Assembly (NCBI GenBank): GCA_965205945.1
Contig: CBDBIB010000003.1
Span: 96,001 to 160,000 of the forward strand
Reading direction: 5' to 3'
DNA from: Bdellovibrionales bacterium
GTDB taxonomy: Bacteria; Bdellovibrionota; Bdellovibrionia; Bdellovibrionales; UBA1609
Length of the DNA stretch: 64,000 nt
Under the pieces are notes generated by a model. The model made no database searches. It was not told the origin of the DNA and worked only from the letters and a program-made list of their open reading frames with translations. Position 1 is the first letter of the stretch; each line of letters opens with the position of its first letter. The position numbers were made by a program, and so were the translations under genes. Below are positions 3,974-37,893 of the stretch, one piece after another.

Positions 3974-6900
3974 TTGTTAAGCTTTTCATCCGAAATATAC
4001 AATATGTATAGAGTATATGACTTATTAAAAAATTTCATAGAAATAAGTGTGAAAGCTCTAACTTTCTTCACAATTTTACTATTAACTCCCCATTCTCTAG
4101 CCACCCCAAGTTCTTTTGTTTTTCAAGGCCAAATTGTAAAACCCAATGGAGACGCTTTAGAAGAAAATAATGTCAGCTTTCTTGTTCAAGTTTTATCCTC
4201 CATGGATCATTGTCTTCTTTACGAAGAAAGTTTTAATCTTAATATGATAGGATCAAAGGGAGTTTTTAACTTAAACGTTGGGTCTGGAATAAACACAGGA
4301 AATGGAGGCTTAACAAATTTATCTAAAGCTTTAGACAATTCTTTTTTAAACAATAAAAGTCTTAGTTGTGCCTTTGGGTCTTCATACACTCCAACCTTAA
4401 ACGATACAAGAAGGCTTAGAGTAACTTTTGATCATGGCAGCGGCCCTCTTACTTTAACAAATGATCATATAATTCACAGTGTGCCCTATGCTCAGTATGC
4501 CGGCAAACTTGGTGGAAAAGCTGTTAATGATTTTATTCAAGTAAGTCGTGGTGTTACTCAAAGCAATTTAGAGACCGTGTTTGATAATGATGCCAATCAA
4601 AGAGAGCTTATGGCTTTAATTAATGGCAGCTCTAATCAATACTCCCCATTAAGCATCAGTGGAGCTAGCTCTTTACCGAGTTTTTCAAGCTCTCATCCAC
4701 CACCTAATTCTCAGGCAGGAGATATTTGGTATAACTCTACAAATAATCAAATCATGTACTACAATGGATCAGCAGCCACTGTTGTTGGTAAAGGTAGTGG
4801 AACTGTAACCAGTATTACAGCAGGAAGTGGCTTAAGTGGTGGAACCATTACAAACAGTGGTACAATTTTAATTGCACCAGGGGGTGTTTTAAACAGTCAT
4901 CTTGCAAGTGGTATTCATGCAAATAAAATCACAAGTGGAATTCTACCAAGCTCAGTGGTTCCCACAGGAACTGACAATACAAAACTTCCTCTTACAGGAG
5001 GGGTTTTATTAGGTGACCTTAATCTTAATAATAATCAGATTCTAAACACAAGTCATATTATGCAAAACCCAGGAAGTACCATGACCTTAGGTTCTTATAC
5101 GAATTTAGAAGAAGTTAGTCTTTTAGGATCTATGAACATGAGCAATGCTGGGGCTACTTGGTACAATAGTGACTCTGGAGCGCTTAAGTATTGGAATGGT
5201 GTTAGCTTAGAAGTTTTAAGCACCTTAAGTAGTGCATCAAGTGTTTTAGTCAATGCTCCTTTAACCTCTTCAGGTGGTAGCAACCCAACAATAAGCATCA
5301 ACCTTGGTAGGGGTTTATACAACAACAGTGGAAACATAGATTTAGATTTAGATTCTTCTGGGGGTTTAGAGTTTAATATAAATAAATTAAAAGTAAAAGT
5401 AGGAAGTGGTTTAAAAATTACGCCAAGGGGTTTAGAAGCAGATATAGGAAGTGGTTTAGGACAGCTCATGCAAGTGGACACTCTTCCTGTGTGTACTAGT
5501 GGGGAAAAGATTCAACGAAACCCTGGTGCTATAATAAGCTATTCTTGCGTGGCTGATATTGATACAGACACAGACACAAGTCTTTTAGGAAGCCAGGCTC
5601 AAGGGGATCTTACAGGAACCTACCCAAACCCTAGTCTTACACCAACGGGTGTAACCCAAGGGGCGTACCCAAAAGTTAGAGTTGATGTTAAAGGAAGAGT
5701 GGTTGAGGGTTTAAGTTTATTAAAATCTGATATACCAGATTTAAATGGAGAAAAGATCACTTCAGGAACCATTAGCACAGCTAGATTAGATGTTGGCACA
5801 GGGAGCAATCAGCTTATTAAGCTTGATAGCTCTTTAAGACTGCCTGCTGTTGATGGAAGTCGGCTTATAAACTTACCAAGTAGTGCTGATAATATGGGAG
5901 ATAGCGTAGCTCGATTAAATATAAATCTTAACCAAAATTATTTAAGTGGAGACGGTGATAATGAGGGAATTATTATTGATGCTAGTGGAAGGGTTGGAGT
6001 TGGTAAGGCTAGTCCTGAGGCTTTATTAGACGTTGCTGGAACAGCAAGAATAACACAAATTTGTGATGAAAGAGGAGCAAATTGTAAGGATGTGTCTGAA
6101 GGTTGGAGTTTAGCAAGTCTGGCGGCAAACACGGTGACCTACACTCCATTTGGAAACATTCAGGCTACAGATGTAGAAGGTGCACTTAATGAACTTGAAT
6201 CTAGAAAAGCTCCAATAACTAGAACTATTAGAACGGCTTTAAACAGTGGATTAAGTGGAGGTGGAGATTTATCGACTAATAGAAGTTTAAGTGTAGACAT
6301 TAACAAAACTACAGAAAAAACTACGGCTGATTCTTTAGACAGTGTTTTAATATATGATGTTTCTCAAAGTAGTCTTAAAAAAATAACACATTCAAACTTT
6401 TTAAACGGTTATTTAAAAGCTTCTTTAGGAAAAAGTCGAGGCAACGCAATGGATGCTGGTGGGGTGCCTAGTTGTGAAAGCAATGAAAAACTTCAAATGA
6501 GTAATGGCCCTATTTATTCCTGGTCATGTGAAGTTGATCAAAACACAAGTCTTTTAGGAAGCCAGGCTCAAGGGGATCTTACAGGAACCTACCCAAACCC
6601 TAGTCTTATACCAACGGGTGTAACCCCAGGGACGTACTCAAAAGTTAGAGTTGATGTTAAAGGAAGAGTGGTTGAGAGTTTAAGTTTATCAGAAAATGAT
6701 ATACCAGATTTAAATGGAGAAAAAATCACTTCAGGAACCATTAGCACAGCTAGATTAGATGTTGGCACAGGGAGCAATCAGCTTATTAAGCTTGATAGCT
6801 CTTTAAGACTGCCTGCTGTTGATGGAAGTCGGCTTATAAACTTACCAAGCAGTGCTGATAATATGGGAGATGGTATAGCTCGATTAAATATAAGTCTTAA

Positions 6901-9900
6901 CCAAAATTATTTAAGTGGAGACGGTGATAATGAGGGAATTATTATTGATGCTAGTGGAAGGGTTGGGGTTGGTAAGGCTAGTCCTGAGGCTTTATTAGAC
7001 GTTGCTGGAACAGCAAGAATAACACAAATTTGTGATGAAAGAGGAGCAAATTGTAAGGATGTGTCTGAAGGTTGGAGTTTAGCAAGTCTGGCGGCAAACA
7101 CAGTGACCTACACTCCATTTGGAAACATTCAGGCTACAGATGTAGAAGGTGCACTTAATGAACTTGAATCTAGAAAAGCTCCAATAACTAGAACTATTAC
7201 AACGGCTTTAAACAGTGGATTAAGTGGAGGTGGAGATTTATCAACTAATAGAAGTTTAAGTGTAGACATTAACAAAACTACAGAAAAAACTACGGCTGAT
7301 TCTTTAGACAGTGTTTTAATGTATGATGTTTCTCAAAGTAGTCTTAAAAAAATAACACATTCAAACTTTTTAAACGGTTATTTAAAAGCTTCTTTAGGAA
7401 AAAGTCGAGGCAACGCAATGGATGCTGGTGGGGTGCCTAGTTGTGAAAGCAATGAAAAACTTCAAATGAGTAACGGCCCTATTTATTCCTGGTCATGTGA
7501 AGTTGATCAAAACACAAGTCTTTTAGGAAGCCAGGCTCAAGGGGATCTTACAGGAACCTACCCGAACCCTAGTCTTATACCAACGGGTGTAACCCCAGGG
7601 ACGTACCCAAAAGTTAGAGTTGATGTTAAAGGAAGAGTGGTTGAGGGTTTAAGTTTATTAAAATCTGATATACCAGATTTAAATGGAGAAAAGATCACTT
7701 CAGGAACCATTAGCACAGCTAGATTAGATGTTGGCACAGGGAGTAATCAGCTTATTAAGCTTGATAGCTCTTTAAGACTGCCTGCTGTTGATGGAAGTCG
7801 GCTTATAAACTTACCAAGCAGTGCTGATAATATGGGAGATGGTATAGCTCGATTAAATATAAATCTTAACCAAAATTATTTAAGTGGAGACGGTGATAAT
7901 GAGGGAATTATTATTGATGCTAATGGAAGGGTTGGAGTTGGTAAGGCTAGTCCTGAGGCTTTATTAGACGTTGCTGGAACAGCAAGAATAACACAAATTT
8001 GTGATGAAAGAGGAGCAAATTGTAAGGATGTGTCTGAAGGTTGGAGTTTAGCAAGTCTGGCGGCAAACACGGTGACCTACACTCCATTTGGAAACATTCA
8101 GGCTACAGATGTAGAAGGTGCACTTAATGAACTTGAATCTAGAAAAGCTCCAATAACTAGAACTATTAGAACGGCTTTAAACAGTGGATTAAGTGGAGGC
8201 GGAGATTTATCAACTAATAGAAGTTTAAGTGTAGACATTAACAAAACTACAGAAAAAACTACGGCTGATTCTTTAGACAGTGTTTTAATGTATGATGTTT
8301 CTCAAAGTGGTCTTAAAAAAATAACACATTCAAACTTTTTAAACGGTTATTTAAAAGCTTCTTTAGGCACAAGTCGAGGCAACGCAATGGATGCTGGTGG
8401 GGTGCCTAATTGTGAAAGCAATGAAAAACTTCAAATGAGTGAAGGTCCTATTTATTTATGGTCATGTGTGACAGACACAAGTCTTTTAGGAAGCCAGGCT
8501 CAAGGGGATCTTACAGGAACCTACCCGAACCCTAGTCTTATACCAACGGGTGTAACCCAAGGGACGTACCCAAAAGTTAGAGTTGATGTTAAAGGAAGAG
8601 TGGTTGAGGGTTTAAGTTTATTAAAATCTGATATACCAGATTTAAATGGAGAAAAGATCACTTCAGGAACCATTAGCACAGCTAGATTAGATGTTGGCAC
8701 AGGGAGCAATCAGCTTATTAAGCTTGATAGCTCTTTAAGACTGCCTGCTGTTGATGGAAGTCGGCTTATAAACTTACCAAGCAGTGCTGATAATATGGGA
8801 GATGGCAGGGCTCGATTAAATATAAATCTTAACCAAAATTATTTAAGTGGAGACGGCGATGATGAAGGAATCACTATTAACAATAATGGTGATGTTTCTG
8901 TCTCTGGAAGCATTTCTACTCCAGGATCTATTAGTACATCTACTGTTACATTTTTAAAAAAAGTTGGAACAGTTACAACCCCTTGTGACAGTTTAACTGA
9001 GGGTACTTTAAGGTATAATTCTTTAGGAAAAAAACTGGAGTTTTGCGATGGGGTAGTGTGGAAAACTTTTTTAAGTAACAATGATCCAACAATTTCTATT
9101 ACAAACTCTTTAAGTGGATCTTACATTAATTCTATTAATGAGGGGGGTTTTAGGGTTTTAGGAACATGTTCTGAAGATGGTGAGCTTATCACATTTTCAC
9201 ATGGTACAAGCTTTATTACTTGTTCTAATAAAAGCTTTAGTGGTGATATTGATTTTTCAAGCCTAAGTGATGGTCCACTTTCACTAACTGCTAGTATCAC
9301 AAACATTGCTGGAAATTCTAAAACTTCAGGTGTTTTAAATCTAATAAAAGATACTAAACCCCCTATTGTCAGTATTGGAAGCCATATAATAAGCAGTTCA
9401 AATTCTATAGACTTTCCCATAACTGTAAGCCAAGACTTTAGTAGTATAAACCTAGAAAAGAGCAATGTCAGCCTTACTGGAGCTACTACAGGTTGCACAG
9501 TTTTAGTAACAAATGGAACAACTATTAATCCAAGTATTAGGATTTCAGACTGCAGTGATGAAACCGGAAATATTCAAATTACAATCGCCTCTGGTGTTGC
9601 ACAAGATGCAGCCGGAAACCTGTCTGATGTAGTTAGTTTAAGCACTGAAATACAAAATTTAGGAACCCCTTTTACAGCTAAATTTAGTATTTATGGTAGT
9701 GATTTAAATTTAAATCTTAGGTTAAATTCTTCTTATACATATAACTTTATGGTTCATTGGGGGGATGGAACCTCGGGAGTTGTTACTTCATCAAGTGATT
9801 TAGATAAAAATCATACTTATTCATCTTCAGGGACTTATATAGTTAAAATCACTGGGCGCTGCCCATATCTTAACTTTCGTGATAGCGAGCAAATAATTGA

Positions 9901-11215
9901 GGTTACAGAATTAGGAGACACAGGGTGGGAAAGTTTTAGTCATATGTTTTATAAAGCAGATAACTTAACTCTTGTTAATGGTGGCTCAACTAGACATGTT
10001 ACTAATATGAGCTTGATGTTTTATGATGCAGCTTTAGCTAACCCTGACACCTCTAACTGGGACACTTCTAAGGTTACTAGTATGAGCTGGATGTTTTTTA
10101 GTGCAGATTTAGCTAACCCTGACACCTCTGACTGGGACACTTCTAAGGTTACTAATATGAACGGGATGTTTTATGGTGCAGATTTAGCTAACCCTGACAC
10201 CTCTGACTGGGACACTTCTAAGGTTACTAGTATGAGCTCTATGTTTTATAATGCAGATTTAGCTAACCCTGACACCTCTGACTGGGACACTTCTAAGGTT
10301 ACTAGTATGAGCTCTATGTTTAATAATGCAGCTTTAGCTAACCCTGACACCTCTGACTGGGACACTTCTAAGGTTACTGATATGAGGTCTATGTTTAATA
10401 ATGCAGATTTAGCTAACCCTGACACCTCTGACTGGGACACTTCTAAGGTTACTGATATGAGCTCTATGTTTTTAAGTGCAGCTTTAGCTAACCCTGACAC
10501 CTCTAACTGGGACACTTCTAAGGTTACTGATATGAACTGGATGTTTTCTGATGCAGATTTAGCTAACCCTGACACCTCTAACTGGGACACTTCTAAGGTT
10601 ACTGATATGAGCTCTATGTTTTTAAGTGCAGCTTTAGCTAACCCTGACACCTCTGACTGGGACACTTCTAAGGTTACTAATATGAACGGGATGTTTTCTT
10701 ATGCAGCTTTAGCTAACCCTGACACCTCTGACTGGGACACTTCTAAGGTTACTAGTATGAGCTCTATGTTTTATAATGCAGATTTAGCTAACCCTGACAC
10801 CTCTGACTGGGACACTTCTAAGGTTATTTATATGAACTCTATGTTTTATAATGCAGATTTAGCTAACCCTGACACCTCTAACTGGGACACTTCTAAGGTT
10901 ATTTATATGAACTCTATGTTTTATAATGCAGATTTAGCTAACCCTGACACCTCTAACTGGGACACTTCTAAGGTTACTAATATGAGCTTGATGTTTTATG
11001 ATGCAGATTTAGCTAACCCTGACACCTCTGACTGGGACACTTCTAAGGTTACTGATATGGGGAGTATGTTTAATAATGCAGCTTCTTTTGATCAAGACAT
11101 CAGTTCATGGAATGTTTCTAACGTTCTCGATTGCGGCAGTTTTTCAAGCCGAACTTTAACTTCTTGGACTCGTGCTGAAAAACCTAATTTTACACGTTGT
11201 AGCCCTGGTTATTAA
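3974..11215 (+). CDS. Giant secreted fibre/adhesin: Bdellovibrio-type N-terminal domain, tandem fibre modules, Ig/PKD-like region and C-terminal BspA/DUF285 repeats
   Basis: 2413-aa ORF. Signal-like VKALTFFTILLLTPHSLA (true start may be GTG ~4049), FQGQIVKPNG..CLLYEE, GDLTGTYPNP and GRVGVGKASPEALLDVAG fibre motifs, VHWGDG..HTY, 25-aa repeats. Confidence 0.85.
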   Translation: MLSFSSEIYNMYRVYDLLKNFIEISVKALTFFTILLLTPHSLATPSSFVFQGQIVKPNGDALEENNVSFLVQVLSSMDHCLLYEESFNLNMIGSKGVFNLNVGSGINTGNGGLTNLSKALDNSFLNNKSLSCAFGSSYTPTLNDTRRLRVTFDHGSGPLTLTNDHIIHSVPYAQYAGKLGGKAVNDFIQVSRGVTQSNLETVFDNDANQRELMALINGSSNQYSPLSISGASSLPSFSSSHPPPNSQAGDIWYNSTNNQIMYYNGSAATVVGKGSGTVTSITAGSGLSGGTITNSGTILIAPGGVLNSHLASGIHANKITSGILPSSVVPTGTDNTKLPLTGGVLLGDLNLNNNQILNTSHIMQNPGSTMTLGSYTNLEEVSLLGSMNMSNAGATWYNSDSGALKYWNGVSLEVLSTLSSASSVLVNAPLTSSGGSNPTISINLGRGLYNNSGNIDLDLDSSGGLEFNINKLKVKVGSGLKITPRGLEADIGSGLGQLMQVDTLPVCTSGEKIQRNPGAIISYSCVADIDTDTDTSLLGSQAQGDLTGTYPNPSLTPTGVTQGAYPKVRVDVKGRVVEGLSLLKSDIPDLNGEKITSGTISTARLDVGTGSNQLIKLDSSLRLPAVDGSRLINLPSSADNMGDSVARLNINLNQNYLSGDGDNEGIIIDASGRVGVGKASPEALLDVAGTARITQICDERGANCKDVSEGWSLASLAANTVTYTPFGNIQATDVEGALNELESRKAPITRTIRTALNSGLSGGGDLSTNRSLSVDINKTTEKTTADSLDSVLIYDVSQSSLKKITHSNFLNGYLKASLGKSRGNAMDAGGVPSCESNEKLQMSNGPIYSWSCEVDQNTSLLGSQAQGDLTGTYPNPSLIPTGVTPGTYSKVRVDVKGRVVESLSLSENDIPDLNGEKITSGTISTARLDVGTGSNQLIKLDSSLRLPAVDGSRLINLPSSADNMGDGIARLNISLNQNYLSGDGDNEGIIIDASGRVGVGKASPEALLDVAGTARITQICDERGANCKDVSEGWSLASLAANTVTYTPFGNIQATDVEGALNELESRKAPITRTITTALNSGLSGGGDLSTNRSLSVDINKTTEKTTADSLDSVLMYDVSQSSLKKITHSNFLNGYLKASLGKSRGNAMDAGGVPSCESNEKLQMSNGPIYSWSCEVDQNTSLLGSQAQGDLTGTYPNPSLIPTGVTPGTYPKVRVDVKGRVVEGLSLLKSDIPDLNGEKITSGTISTARLDVGTGSNQLIKLDSSLRLPAVDGSRLINLPSSADNMGDGIARLNINLNQNYLSGDGDNEGIIIDANGRVGVGKASPEALLDVAGTARITQICDERGANCKDVSEGWSLASLAANTVTYTPFGNIQATDVEGALNELESRKAPITRTIRTALNSGLSGGGDLSTNRSLSVDINKTTEKTTADSLDSVLMYDVSQSGLKKITHSNFLNGYLKASLGTSRGNAMDAGGVPNCESNEKLQMSEGPIYLWSCVTDTSLLGSQAQGDLTGTYPNPSLIPTGVTQGTYPKVRVDVKGRVVEGLSLLKSDIPDLNGEKITSGTISTARLDVGTGSNQLIKLDSSLRLPAVDGSRLINLPSSADNMGDGRARLNINLNQNYLSGDGDDEGITINNNGDVSVSGSISTPGSISTSTVTFLKKVGTVTTPCDSLTEGTLRYNSLGKKLEFCDGVVWKTFLSNNDPTISITNSLSGSYINSINEGGFRVLGTCSEDGELITFSHGTSFITCSNKSFSGDIDFSSLSDGPLSLTASITNIAGNSKTSGVLNLIKDTKPPIVSIGSHIISSSNSIDFPITVSQDFSSINLEKSNVSLTGATTGCTVLVTNGTTINPSIRISDCSDETGNIQITIASGVAQDAAGNLSDVVSLSTEIQNLGTPFTAKFSIYGSDLNLNLRLNSSYTYNFMVHWGDGTSGVVTSSSDLDKNHTYSSSGTYIVKITGRCPYLNFRDSEQIIEVTELGDTGWESFSHMFYKADNLTLVNGGSTRHVTNMSLMFYDAALANPDTSNWDTSKVTSMSWMFFSADLANPDTSDWDTSKVTNMNGMFYGADLANPDTSDWDTSKVTSMSSMFYNADLANPDTSDWDTSKVTSMSSMFNNAALANPDTSDWDTSKVTDMRSMFNNADLANPDTSDWDTSKVTDMSSMFLSAALANPDTSNWDTSKVTDMNWMFSDADLANPDTSNWDTSKVTDMSSMFLSAALANPDTSDWDTSKVTNMNGMFSYAALANPDTSDWDTSKVTSMSSMFYNADLANPDTSDWDTSKVIYMNSMFYNADLANPDTSNWDTSKVIYMNSMFYNADLANPDTSNWDTSKVTNMSLMFYDADLANPDTSDWDTSKVTDMGSMFNNAASFDQDISSWNVSNVLDCGSFSSRTLTSWTRAEKPNFTRCSPGY
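5574..8872 (+). repeat. 969-bp (323-aa) in-frame tandem repeat, ~3.4 copies
   Basis: Units start at 5574, 6543, 7512 and 8475 (third unit is 963 bp); near-identical DNA. Confidence 0.97.
9998..11122 (+). repeat. 75-bp (25-aa) in-frame tandem repeat, 14 full units plus 1 divergent, BspA/DUF285 type
   Basis: Consensus VxxMxxMFxxAxLANPDTSxWDTSK; units run from 9998 in steps of 75. Confidence 0.97.
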
Positions 11216-35767: not shown

Positions 35768-37893
35768 AAGGCCTTGTAGTTATTAGGGTATATAGAGAAA
35801 AAAGATTAATTGCAGTAAAACAGTTCCTATCGCCACAAATAGTAATTGGTCGTCAAAGTGATGCAGGCTTATCTTTAAATGATGAACTTATTTCGCCTCT
35901 TCATGCAGTCATAGAAAAAAGAGATGAGGGTTATTATATTTCAGATCTAGGCTCTGAGAGTGGTCTTTTTATTAAAGGTAAGAAGGTTTTAGAGGCTCTT
36001 GTTAAAGAAGGGGAACCTATTGAAATTGGACCATATTTTATTAAATTTTATGTGGGCATTCCAAAGCTTTCTTCTCTAGATGATTTTGAAAAAGAACATA
36101 GTAAGATTCAAGAGTCTGAAAGAAAGGTTGTAGAAAATAAAGTTAAGGAGGTTGATTTTTTAAAAGAGGATCTGCCTTTGCTGCCAAAGGATACAGATCT
36201 AGAGGAGCCTTACTTAGAAGAGGATCTGCCCTCACTGCCAGAGGATACAAACTCAGAGGTGCCTTATTTAGAAGATGAAAGAACTAGTCCAAACATAATA
36301 CTAGATGAGTCTTTAGATATAAAAGGTGAGAAAGCTGGTGTAAAAATTCAAAGTAGAAATATTGAAGATGCAATAGGTGCTCAAAAATTAGAGCCAATAT
36401 CTGGGGGTTATATAGCTCCAGTAAGTAACTATGATAATGTAGATGAAATTATAGATCCTTATTCAAGAGGACCTATATTAGAAGTGGTCATTTGTTGGAA
36501 AGAAAGAATTTTAAAAACGTATCATTTTTCTAATAAGCGTCAGATATTTATGTCTAATTCTAAAAATACAGATATACATATTCCCATTTCTAATAAAAAT
36601 ATGAAGTATAAGCTGGTTTCTTTTTCTGATGAATGCATTGTTCATGTAGCCAGTTCTATGGAGGGTGAACTTTATTATGATAATAAGCGTGAAAATCTTA
36701 AAGCTTTAACAACGGGCAGTGCTTTAATGAATTCAAGTCTTGGCGGGAAGGAGCTTAAGCTTGATCAAGGTCAAATGGTGAAACTTAATTTACTAAATGG
36801 CAAAGTTCTTGGGTATATAAGATTTGTTAAAGACACTCCTGCTACTATAAAGACTTCAGTTTTTGATTTTACGACATCTGAAGCTGTGGGAATTTTTATG
36901 TCCTTTGCATCAGTTTTGGTTATTGCACTGTATATGCTTTTTTATGTGCCGAGCACACTAGATGACACTGAGGATTTGTTACAAGACAGACTTAAAAAAG
37001 CAATAATTACGTTTAATCCCCCTCCTAAAGTAGATATTCCTAAAATATCAGTCCCAAAGGTTATAAAGCCTAAAATCACAAAAGTTTCTGAAAAACTTGC
37101 CAAAGTAAAAGCAAGCAGACCAAAACCAAAAGTTAAATCACCTAAAAAAGGTGCTCCTAAATCTGCTGCTCCAAGTAAAGTTAAAACTACGAATAAAGTA
37201 GGGTCGTCAAAACCTGGAGGCTCTATTAAAACAGGCAAAAAAGCCTCAAATATGAAAACAGCTAAGAAAGATCTTACAAAAACAGGGCTTCTTTCAGTTT
37301 TGAGTGGAGGGGGTAAAAACAAAGCTTTAAATAAAGCAACCTCAGGAGTAGGAACTACAATAGGTGTTGCTGACTCTAAAACAGGTTATCAAGGACAGCT
37401 TTCAGATCGAAAGGGTGAGGACATTGGAACAAAGCTTCAGGCTGGTCGTGGTGGAGAAGGTTTAAAGCTTATAGGTATTGGTGATTTAAAAACGTCAAGT
37501 AGAGGTGGTGGAGAAAATACTTATGGTGTCGGTGAGCTTGGAGGCAAAGGAACATCTACAATTATAGGTTTGGATGGGCTTAGTGAAGAGTTTTCTAGTA
37601 CCATTGATAAAGATGCTATTAGGAGATTGATTCAAAAAAATAAAAATTCTCTTAAAGGTTGTTATGATAGGGCCTTAACTCAGAACCAGAATTTAAACGG
37701 TAAGGTTTTACTTAGTTGGAGAATTGTTAATGGGGGAAAAATGACTCAACCTAAAGTTAAGAGTTCAACGTTAAATGATGTGGAAGTTGAACAATGCATA
37801 ATTAGCAGACTAAGGATTTTGACATTTCCAGACCCAGGGCCAAATGAAATCGCAGAAGTGGATTACCCGTTTGTATTTAGTAGATCAAAGTAG
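35764..37893 (+). CDS. GltG-like protein (FHA, TM helix, Pro/Lys/Gly-rich linker, TonB_C-like AgmX/PglI domain)
   Basis: IGR..S..HA..SDLGS; one TM helix; CYDRAL..L.GKV...VEQCI...FP....YPFVF. Confidence 0.85.
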   Translation: MKGLVVIRVYREKRLIAVKQFLSPQIVIGRQSDAGLSLNDELISPLHAVIEKRDEGYYISDLGSESGLFIKGKKVLEALVKEGEPIEIGPYFIKFYVGIPKLSSLDDFEKEHSKIQESERKVVENKVKEVDFLKEDLPLLPKDTDLEEPYLEEDLPSLPEDTNSEVPYLEDERTSPNIILDESLDIKGEKAGVKIQSRNIEDAIGAQKLEPISGGYIAPVSNYDNVDEIIDPYSRGPILEVVICWKERILKTYHFSNKRQIFMSNSKNTDIHIPISNKNMKYKLVSFSDECIVHVASSMEGELYYDNKRENLKALTTGSALMNSSLGGKELKLDQGQMVKLNLLNGKVLGYIRFVKDTPATIKTSVFDFTTSEAVGIFMSFASVLVIALYMLFYVPSTLDDTEDLLQDRLKKAIITFNPPPKVDIPKISVPKVIKPKITKVSEKLAKVKASRPKPKVKSPKKGAPKSAAPSKVKTTNKVGSSKPGGSIKTGKKASNMKTAKKDLTKTGLLSVLSGGGKNKALNKATSGVGTTIGVADSKTGYQGQLSDRKGEDIGTKLQAGRGGEGLKLIGIGDLKTSSRGGGENTYGVGELGGKGTSTIIGLDGLSEEFSSTIDKDAIRRLIQKNKNSLKGCYDRALTQNQNLNGKVLLSWRIVNGGKMTQPKVKSSTLNDVEVEQCIISRLRILTFPDPGPNEIAEVDYPFVFSRSK

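Follow-up and report, generated by a model that had tools for sequence, protein, structure and literature searches.

Proteins with the PARCEL/DUF285 repeat have variable hydrophilic positions in their units, and the corresponding open reading frames (ORFs) have been discussed as possible recombination reservoirs (Roske et al. 2010, PMC2996958). As described in the PARCEL paper, most tracts are composed of unique, diverged units, with identical units being infrequent and helices being predicted, and the words 'synonymous', 'gene conversion' and 'concerted' do not occur in its main text (PMC2996958). A second mode of repeat evolution is documented for fungal NLR proteins, in which highly internally conserved (HIC) repeats, such as the WD repeats of hnwd and het-d/e/r in Podospora anserina, differ little in their DNA and undergo concerted evolution, within paralogs as well as between them (Chevanne et al. 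2010, PMC2873952; Dyrka et al. 2014, PMC4986451). In the accounts given in these two papers, the number of repeats is polymorphic, new variants arise by rearrangement, and diversifying selection acts on a few codons, namely, those of the surface with which a recognition domain binds its ligand (PMC2873952, PMC4986451). In the predatory bacterium Bdellovibrio bacteriovorus, mosaic adhesive trimer (MAT) fibers consist of a conserved N-terminal domain, a long fiber and exchangeable C-terminal tips proposed to recognize prey epitopes (Caulton et al. 2024, PMC10769870). The tips described there are trimeric β-sandwiches or known adhesive folds, and the main text of that paper does not use the terms 'leucine-rich', 'DUF285', 'BspA' or 'solenoid' (PMC10769870). 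Here, we analyze a tandem array of 75-nt PARCEL-type units located in a 64,000-nt stretch of DNA, hereafter the window, from a Bdellovibrionales bacterium (GCA_965205945.1, contig CBDBIB010000003.1, positions 96,001 to 160,000, forward strand), where it encodes the C-terminal part of a giant fiber protein, P0001.

The explanation that we favor for this array, and to which we assign a probability of roughly 65%, is concerted evolution combined with diversifying selection on a probably ligand-binding face of a leucine-rich repeat (LRR)-like MAT-fiber tip.

An identical scaffold with a few hypervariable codons

Tandem Repeats Finder (TRF) detected a single strong array at positions 9998-11081, with a period of 75, 14.5 copies, 91% matches, 0% indels and a score of 1716. 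Cut in frame from position 9998, the array resolves into 14 units of 25 residues with the pattern VTxMxxMFxxAxLANPDTS[N/D]WDTSK. The initial annotation of this DNA, made by inspection of the letters, had described the scaffold of the units as free of synonymous change, and the column counts bear this out: 15 of the 75 nucleotide columns vary among the 14 units, the other 60, including the scaffold, are invariant, and each codon variant, at codons 2, 3, 5, 6, 9, 10, 12 and 20, is an amino acid change. The allele lists that it gave for codons 3, 5, 6, 9 and 10 and the toggling of codons 12 and 20 are likewise correct, with a T/I variant at codon 2 of units 12 and 13 having been overlooked. The relations that it saw between units hold as well, with units 4 and 11 as well as 12 and 13 being identical (0 differences), units 7 and 9 differing at 1 position, units 1 and 14 differing at 2, and units 3 and 10 having a half-block in common, namely, AATATGAACGGGATGTTT. 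Its remark that codons 3 and 10 depart from AAT only at the adenines is true and means merely that the third base T is fixed. An antisense open frame of 139 aa lies fully within the array (window positions 10246-10665, minus strand) and is most likely a by-product of the stop-free repeat.

A search for further arrays with the same scaffold, proposed in the initial annotation, was performed on the own genome of the bacterium (G000; 1.87 Mb in 5 contigs, 97.3% complete) with a 43-nt pattern and up to 4 mismatches allowed. The genome contains 119 scaffold copies in nine arrays, 111 of them exact, a recurrence well beyond chance, and the spacing is exactly 75 nt in all arrays, which comprise 5, 6, 10, 11, 12, 14, 14, 16 and 31 units. 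At the DNA level, the 119 units represent 79 distinct types. Six of the nine array genes encode full-length fibers in which 2006-2008 residues precede the array; of the others, one is truncated by the start of a contig, and two are short. The short paralogs, P0002 and P0003 (G000:C1:268208-270970 and G000:C3:400210-402000), are 909 and 585 aa long; at their N-termini, a lipoprotein-type signal (LVGC) and a choice-of-anchor-D-like domain take the place of the MAT fiber, and the same PKD-like domain and the same hypervariable array, of 16 and 11 units, respectively, follow. Thus, given that the same tip is present on MAT fibers and on two lipoproteins, the tip is a module mounted on two different chassis. 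The six full-length paralogs, which were aligned with the two lipoproteins and the truncated copy left out, are 98.6-99.75% identical over the 6,024-nt pre-array region.

Two further observations concern the remaining members of the family. Contig C3 starts inside the truncated paralog (G000:C3:2-3544), and the 6-unit array of this gene, composed of types 1, 2, 1, 12, 13 and 14, resembles the window array minus units 3-11, being either a real contraction derivative or a contig-end assembly problem. Short DUF285-like fragments are present away from the nine genes (G000:C1:322242-322442, C1:644834-645106 and C3:826229-826435); two of the three contain in-frame stops, and they look like decayed remnants of further copies.

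Probable diversifying selection on the variable codons

Across the 119 units, nucleotide diversity at codons 3, 5, 6, 9, 10, 12 and 20 amounts to 0.290 per nt; the remainder of the unit has a value of 0.0068, and the pre-array region (6,024 nt, 6 paralogs) one of 0.0092. Codons 3, 5, 6, 9 and 10 each have 5-10 alleles at intermediate frequencies, exemplified by codon 3 (S 41, D 39, N 25, Y 11), codons 12 and 20 are approximately 50:50 dimorphisms, and variation at codons 2, 11 and 25 is rare. The synonymous variants number just three, all of them singletons.

Selection was assessed by a parsimony count of the minimum number of allele-creating steps per codon. The seven hypervariable codons require 29 nonsynonymous steps on 18.0 nonsynonymous sites and 1 synonymous step, and the whole unit accounts for 3 synonymous steps on 14.3 synonymous sites. 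The per-codon comparison that the initial annotation had called for hence yields an excess of replacements at the variable codons, with 1.61 steps per nonsynonymous site in the seven codons vs. 0.21 per synonymous site in the whole unit, a 7.7-fold difference (binomial p 2e-5). Outside the seven codons, the corresponding ratio of step rates in the unit is 0.34, and in the pre-array region, 49 synonymous changes on 1,362 sites stand beside 66 replacement changes on 4,662 sites. None of the synonymous sites embedded in the variable block varies in the 119 units, be it in GTT, ACT, TTT or GCA or at the third base of codons 3, 10 and 12, which argues for young alleles and against ancient ones shielded from homogenization.

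Among 1,305 units of 115 proteins of the family, entropy is highest at positions 9, 12, 6, 10 and 5 and low at positions 1, 4, 7, 8 and 21, that is, the hypervariable positions are the most variable ones of the whole DUF285 family. This correspondence would also be expected under recent amplification of one unit with relaxed constraint, whereby tolerant surface positions drifted and diversity as such was not selected for. Such a history would be in keeping with the high identity of the paralogs, which implies that the gene family is young or homogenized, and with the 29:1 ratio of nonsynonymous to synonymous steps in the hypervariable codons, which is close to the ratio of sites. Drift, however, cannot outrun the synonymous rate, and the replacement rate here exceeds it 7.7-fold. 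Furthermore, the variable codons exceed the rest of the unit and the pre-array region in diversity by a factor of about 30-40, and alleles occur at the intermediate frequencies given above for codon 3. We regard relaxed constraint as an improbable explanation.

The concentration of changes in a few codons could, in principle, also be the work of targeted hypermutation, with a diversity-generating retroelement (DGR) or another site-directed mutator acting on the units, and the initial annotation contained a hint of such adenine-directed mutagenesis. Codons 3, 10 and 12 vary at the first two bases with the third base T fixed, resembling the AAY-type targets of DGRs, and most of the variable columns include A. 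However, when the 97.3%-complete genome was searched for the reverse transcriptase domain (PF00078), there were 0 matches, with the control positive in 3 of 14 genomes. All 119 scaffold copies are located inside the nine coding arrays, so that there is no separate template copy. Variable columns 5 (C/T), 18 (T/G) and 75 (G/T) lack A, and the alleles of codon 6 (TCT, TTG, TGG, GGG, TTT, TAT, CGG, AAG, CAG and CAT) fit no adenine template. A mutator aimed at the seven codons is excluded on the grounds of the missing reverse transcriptase, the lack of an outside template and the A-less variable columns, and not by the 29:1 ratio; for the same reasons, DGR or retroelement mutagenesis was rejected, and the hint did not hold up. 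Overall, hypermutation of any kind appears very unlikely.

Codon bias was rejected as the cause of scaffold identity given that the pre-array part of P0001 uses GAT 98 times and GAC 28 times; of the two scaffold Asp codons, codon 17 is GAC without exception, and codon 22 departs from GAC in a single one of the 119 units. As to secondary structure of the DNA or RNA, three units folded no better than shuffled sequences (z +1.05); each unit contains one imperfect, 78% complementary 18-nt palindrome.

Recombination within and between arrays

Among the six full-length paralogs, 1,321 of 2,701 site pairs are incompatible by the four-gamete criterion, and the Hudson-Kaplan Rm, the minimum number of recombination events, is 15. 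Within the arrays, mutual information is high between neighboring variable codons (5-6, 9-10, 6-9 and 6-10) and vanishes towards codon 20, with linkage decaying over about 20-50 nt. The great majority of the unit types (69 of 79) are mosaics that could be assembled from sub-blocks of the others. Adjacent units tend to be near-duplicates, with 18 of 110 adjacent pairs differing by at most 1 nt, compared with 7.0 +/- 2.4 after within-array shuffling (0 of 2,000 shuffles reach 18), and unit similarity declines from adjacent units to units of the same array to those of other arrays. The near-duplicate neighbors, mosaic units and four-gamete violations in these sequences point to unequal crossover and gene conversion.

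Thus, the recombinational shuffling envisaged in the initial annotation is visible in the mosaic types, the linkage decay, the near-duplicate neighbors and at least 15 recombination events among paralogs, and its assignment of the array to a solenoid at the tip of an adhesin is supported as well, the predicted solenoid being of the LRR type. Its interpretation, in which the variable binding face is still a proposal, is also incomplete: shuffling alone is not enough, because new alleles require point changes, and these are strongly biased to amino acid replacements.

Seven of the nine arrays start with one of two unit types, and such conserved edges are typical of arrays evolving by unequal exchange. 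The closest pair of paralogs differs at 15 of 6,024 pre-array positions, yet shares a single run of two units; hence, the arrays evolve faster than the genes. Interchangeable units at nine loci, with sub-blocks and short runs of units common to different loci, would also be compatible with programmed cassette switching of the pilE/pilS or vlsE type, an antigenic variation in which one or a few expressed loci are rewritten from the remaining copies, possibly in connection with the invertible element suggested by the inverted-repeat-bounded segment upstream of P0001. The outer inverted arms of this segment are 95 nt long, 83% complementary and 409 nt apart. Against cassette switching, every copy is an intact open frame that has an N-terminus of its own (MAT domain or lipobox) rather than a promoterless fragment, and just 16 of the 79 types occur in two or more arrays, the longest shared run being 3 units. 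Moreover, the genes adjoining P0001 encode ribosomal proteins S4, S6 and L9, peptidase S51, Leu/Phe-tRNA protein transferase, a DEAD-box helicase and EF-G, so that inspection of the neighborhood for diversification machinery revealed housekeeping genes only and no dedicated recombinase gene beside P0001. Programmed switching is, in our assessment, an unlikely source of the pattern.

The array in public reads and in relatives

Given 75-nt repeats in near-identical genes of about 7 kb, the arrays, or the order and number of their units, might be chimeric products of assembly. The contig-end paralog, with its 6-unit array that looks like a contracted copy of the window array, is of the kind that such an artifact would produce. 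The public reads, three runs of one study (X1-X3) that may be the source of the assembly and, in that case, are not independent of it, are represented in the array by unitigs of 60-75 nt, none bridging it, and no contig of a fourth run, X4, aligned. The order and number of units are those of the assembly. The unitigs nevertheless reproduce the variable blocks, with 87 of 100 aligned X1 contigs being at least 99% alike. The summed depth of the scaffold-rich bin is 545, 666 and 270 in the three runs, vs. 5.7, 5.5 and 4.5 in single-copy flank, and this excess of roughly 60-120-fold is compatible with roughly a hundred scaffold copies (~119 in the assembly). Gaps in read cover, such as that at unit 3 in X3, are uninformative at a depth of about 5x. 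In addition, none of the nine arrays departs from the reading frame or from the 75-nt spacing, each has a unique context of its own, and the same pattern is present in a sister species. An assembly artifact as the origin of the pattern is, accordingly, a slim prospect.

The sister species (G003), a member of the same genus, carries 36 units with an identical 30-nt core, distributed over five arrays; its variable codons are 3, 5, 6, 9, 10, 11, 12 and 25, with largely other alleles (H, Q, R, E, K, A). Of 109 genomes of the family searched for this core with up to 2 mismatches allowed, only G000 and G003 contained it, and exact searches with the scaffold in public genome contigs and in metagenome contigs yielded 0 matches in either. 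Other relatives have ordinary, diverged DUF285 arrays with 67-79% matches. Across 117 related proteins with at least 4 canonical units, the median scaffold identity between units is 0.69, with values of at least 0.9 in 3 proteins, all from G000 or G003. Selection on the scaffold DNA itself was considered and dropped, given that the identity of the core in the two species is not significant (P about 0.14, by hand calculation).

The fiber gene and the predicted fold of its tip

The features of P0001 and its surroundings are compiled in Table 1. Translation probably starts with the ATG at 4004, and the residues that come next form a hydrophobic, signal-like segment. In profile searches, P0001 matched DUF285 (PF03382) in Pfam with 362.2 bits (cut-off 25, E 5.4e-110) and the PARCEL repeat (TIGR02167) in NCBIfam with 136.7 bits (cut-off 30); a sequence search of the PDB gave 0 matches for the tip and 0 for the whole protein. 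The last 543 residues were modeled with AlphaFold2 from an alignment of 49 of the 120 listed homologs. The mean predicted local distance difference test score (pLDDT) of the model is 86.2, with values of 97-99 across the array and low values for the last ~70 residues. One β-bridge per 25 residues, at unit position 3, is assigned by DSSP. The domain preceding the array has strands at model residues 30-109 with pLDDT >90, and a weak PKD match covers residues 1911-1960 of the protein. The best structural match of the model is the BspA-type LRR protein 4fs7 (VIA-align Z 21.8, root-mean-square deviation 5.4, 364 residues aligned), and LRR proteins make up all of the top 50 structural matches listed for the tip. 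The array is thus predicted to fold into a solenoid of the LRR type, each unit making one turn, at the distal, C-terminal end of a predator surface fiber.

Table 1. Features of the fiber gene P0001 and of the DNA directly upstream (window coordinates)
Feature	Position	Strand	Evidence or remark
AT-rich segment, 28.5% GC, with nested inverted repeats, directly upstream of P0001	3315..3913		Outer arms 95 nt, 83% complementary
Open frame of 2413 aa (P0001), giant secreted fiber protein	3974..11215	+	ORF list, Pfam, NCBIfam
MAT N-terminal domain, residues 34-191	4073..4546	+	NF053851 Bdello_MAT_N, 145.6 bits, cut-off 60
β-rich, weakly PKD-like domain and N-terminal cap turn before the array	9671..9997	+	Nearly unchanged in all nine paralogs
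14 canonical 75-nt / 25-aa PARCEL (DUF285) units	9998..11047	+	TRF, unit alignment, AlphaFold2 pLDDT 97-99
Degenerate 15th unit with the family-typical FDQDISSWNVSN motif, C-terminal cap turn	11048..11122	+	Unit cut, paralog comparison
30-aa C-terminal tail with two cysteines, then stop	11123..11215	+	A few positions differ among paralogs; low model confidence

The shaft of the fiber (window positions 3974-9600) contains three to four near-identical segments of ~330 residues with the recurring SLLGSQAQGDLTGTYPNPSL. The period of these segments exceeds the 500-nt limit of the TRF run, and the sites that vary among paralogs cluster in the shaft. Elsewhere in the window, TRF found a separate tandem repeat at positions 36160-36275, with a 54-nt period, 2.1 copies and 84% matches.

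Proposed scenario

Taken together, these results suggest the following scenario of concerted evolution under diversifying selection. The array would form the distal tip of a MAT-type surface fiber, with each 25-residue PARCEL/DUF285 unit making one turn of the solenoid. The conserved residues (V1, M4, M7, F8, A11, N15, W21 and others) would build the solenoid core, and positions 3, 5, 6, 9, 10 and 12 would lie on a short β-strand and the stretch that follows it, stacking turn on turn into a ladder. This ladder would constitute the variable, probably ligand-binding surface, with the N/D dimorphism at position 20 being separate. Units would be duplicated in tandem or lost where the identical scaffold of 39-44 nt permits slippage or unequal crossover, with gene conversion acting within paralogs as well as between them. 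Duplication, loss and conversion could keep the scaffold identical, alter the number of units (5 to 31) and recombine the variable sub-blocks, and diversifying selection would retain amino acid replacements at the ladder positions. The outcome would be nine tips that differ in length and surface on fibers that are otherwise about 99% identical. The anatomy of the array, its copy number, the concentration of diversity, the excess of replacements, the mosaic units and the recurrence of the pattern in the sister species are seen in the sequences themselves; the exposure of the variable residues on one face, the binding of a ligand on the prey surface by the tip, and the recombination pathway are inferred.

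Several points weigh against this scenario. The putative single exposed face is deduced from one DSSP bridge per unit and the pattern of conserved hydrophobic residues, and ligand binding is so far a proposal. In the seven codons taken by themselves, the 29:1 ratio of steps is near the ~6:1 ratio of sites, so that the excess of replacements needs the synonymous sites of the whole unit. The invariance of the scaffold is unremarkable on its own because the whole genes are 98.6-99.75% identical. Between the two species, the scaffold shows 1 synonymous difference (codon 14, GCT vs. GCA) over ~10 synonymous sites, and the pS of the flank is 0.23-0.37. Finally, the order and number of units come from one assembly of one strain, in which one paralog is cut by a contig start.

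Comparison with known systems

With regard to how Bdellovibrio-like predators recognize a prey range that is both wide and changing, MAT fibers were proposed in 2024 to be recognition devices that owe their diversity to swapped tip domains (PMC10769870). The locus described here suggests a second, faster route to diversity, in which one type of tip has its surface rewritten turn by turn and its length changed by whole turns, and such variation is likely to tune what the predator can grab. It would also be a bacterial case of a mode of evolution familiar from fungal NLRs and TAL effectors (TALEs), and the scaffold could serve as a natural framework for engineered binders. In the titles and abstracts of the papers listed in our literature searches, we found no description of this mode, in which identical repeats carry hypervariable contact codons, for PARCEL/DUF285 arrays or predator fibers.

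Like the PARCEL/DUF285 proteins described previously, the tip consists of 25-residue tandem units with conserved hydrophobic and variable hydrophilic positions, the number of units varies, and the proteins are targeted to the surface or membrane. It differs from those proteins, as described, in that the scaffold is DNA-identical in 119 units, diversity is restricted to about seven codons, the predicted fold is an LRR solenoid, and dyad symmetry appears weak. With the fungal HIC repeats, it shares the mode of evolution but not homology: the repeat DNA is near-identical, the arrays comprise 5-31 units, and positive selection, as estimated by parsimony, appears to act on a few codons. In the published descriptions, the fungal NLRs are eukaryotic, intracellular STAND receptors with WD, ANK or TPR repeats, the instability of which has been demonstrated experimentally, whereas here, the repeat is a predicted LRR-like PARCEL unit at the tip of an extracellular fiber of a bacterium.

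The TALE repeats of Xanthomonas also have almost the same DNA from unit to unit, the hypervariable codons always occupying the same positions, and their number varies; recombination between repeats and between paralogs gives rise to new specificities. These repeats are helical, and each of them has two variable residues and reads one DNA base. In contrast, the unit of the fiber tip is a predicted LRR-like turn with about seven variable residues, for which a code of one unit per ligand unit would be hypothetical. The variable lymphocyte receptors (VLRs) of lampreys are LRR solenoids with a few variable positions per turn that are diversified by copying of LRR cassettes, a somatic assembly driven by a deaminase. 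A VLR-containing complex (6bxa) is among the Foldseek matches of the tip model. Nothing at the present locus shows a programmed process or a dedicated enzyme. A bolder extension, which we consider rather doubtful, is that the locus is a bacterial germ-line analog of the TALE and VLR logic. A code of six to seven residues per turn would allow 5-31 turns to read a periodic prey polymer, such as O-antigen or a repeating glycan, the 39-44-nt scaffold would be the substrate of recombination, the nine loci, each behind an invertible upstream element, would be rewritten and resized quickly, and a clonal population would carry shifting prey specificities.

Like the MAT fibers, P0001 has an N-terminal MAT domain (145.6 bits). 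In contrast to the MAT fibers described so far, its tip is a predicted repeat solenoid of variable length, which is also present on two short lipoproteins. The locus thus combines a PARCEL array, a MAT-fiber tip and highly internally conserved repeats that are probably under diversifying selection, each of these kinds being known by itself.

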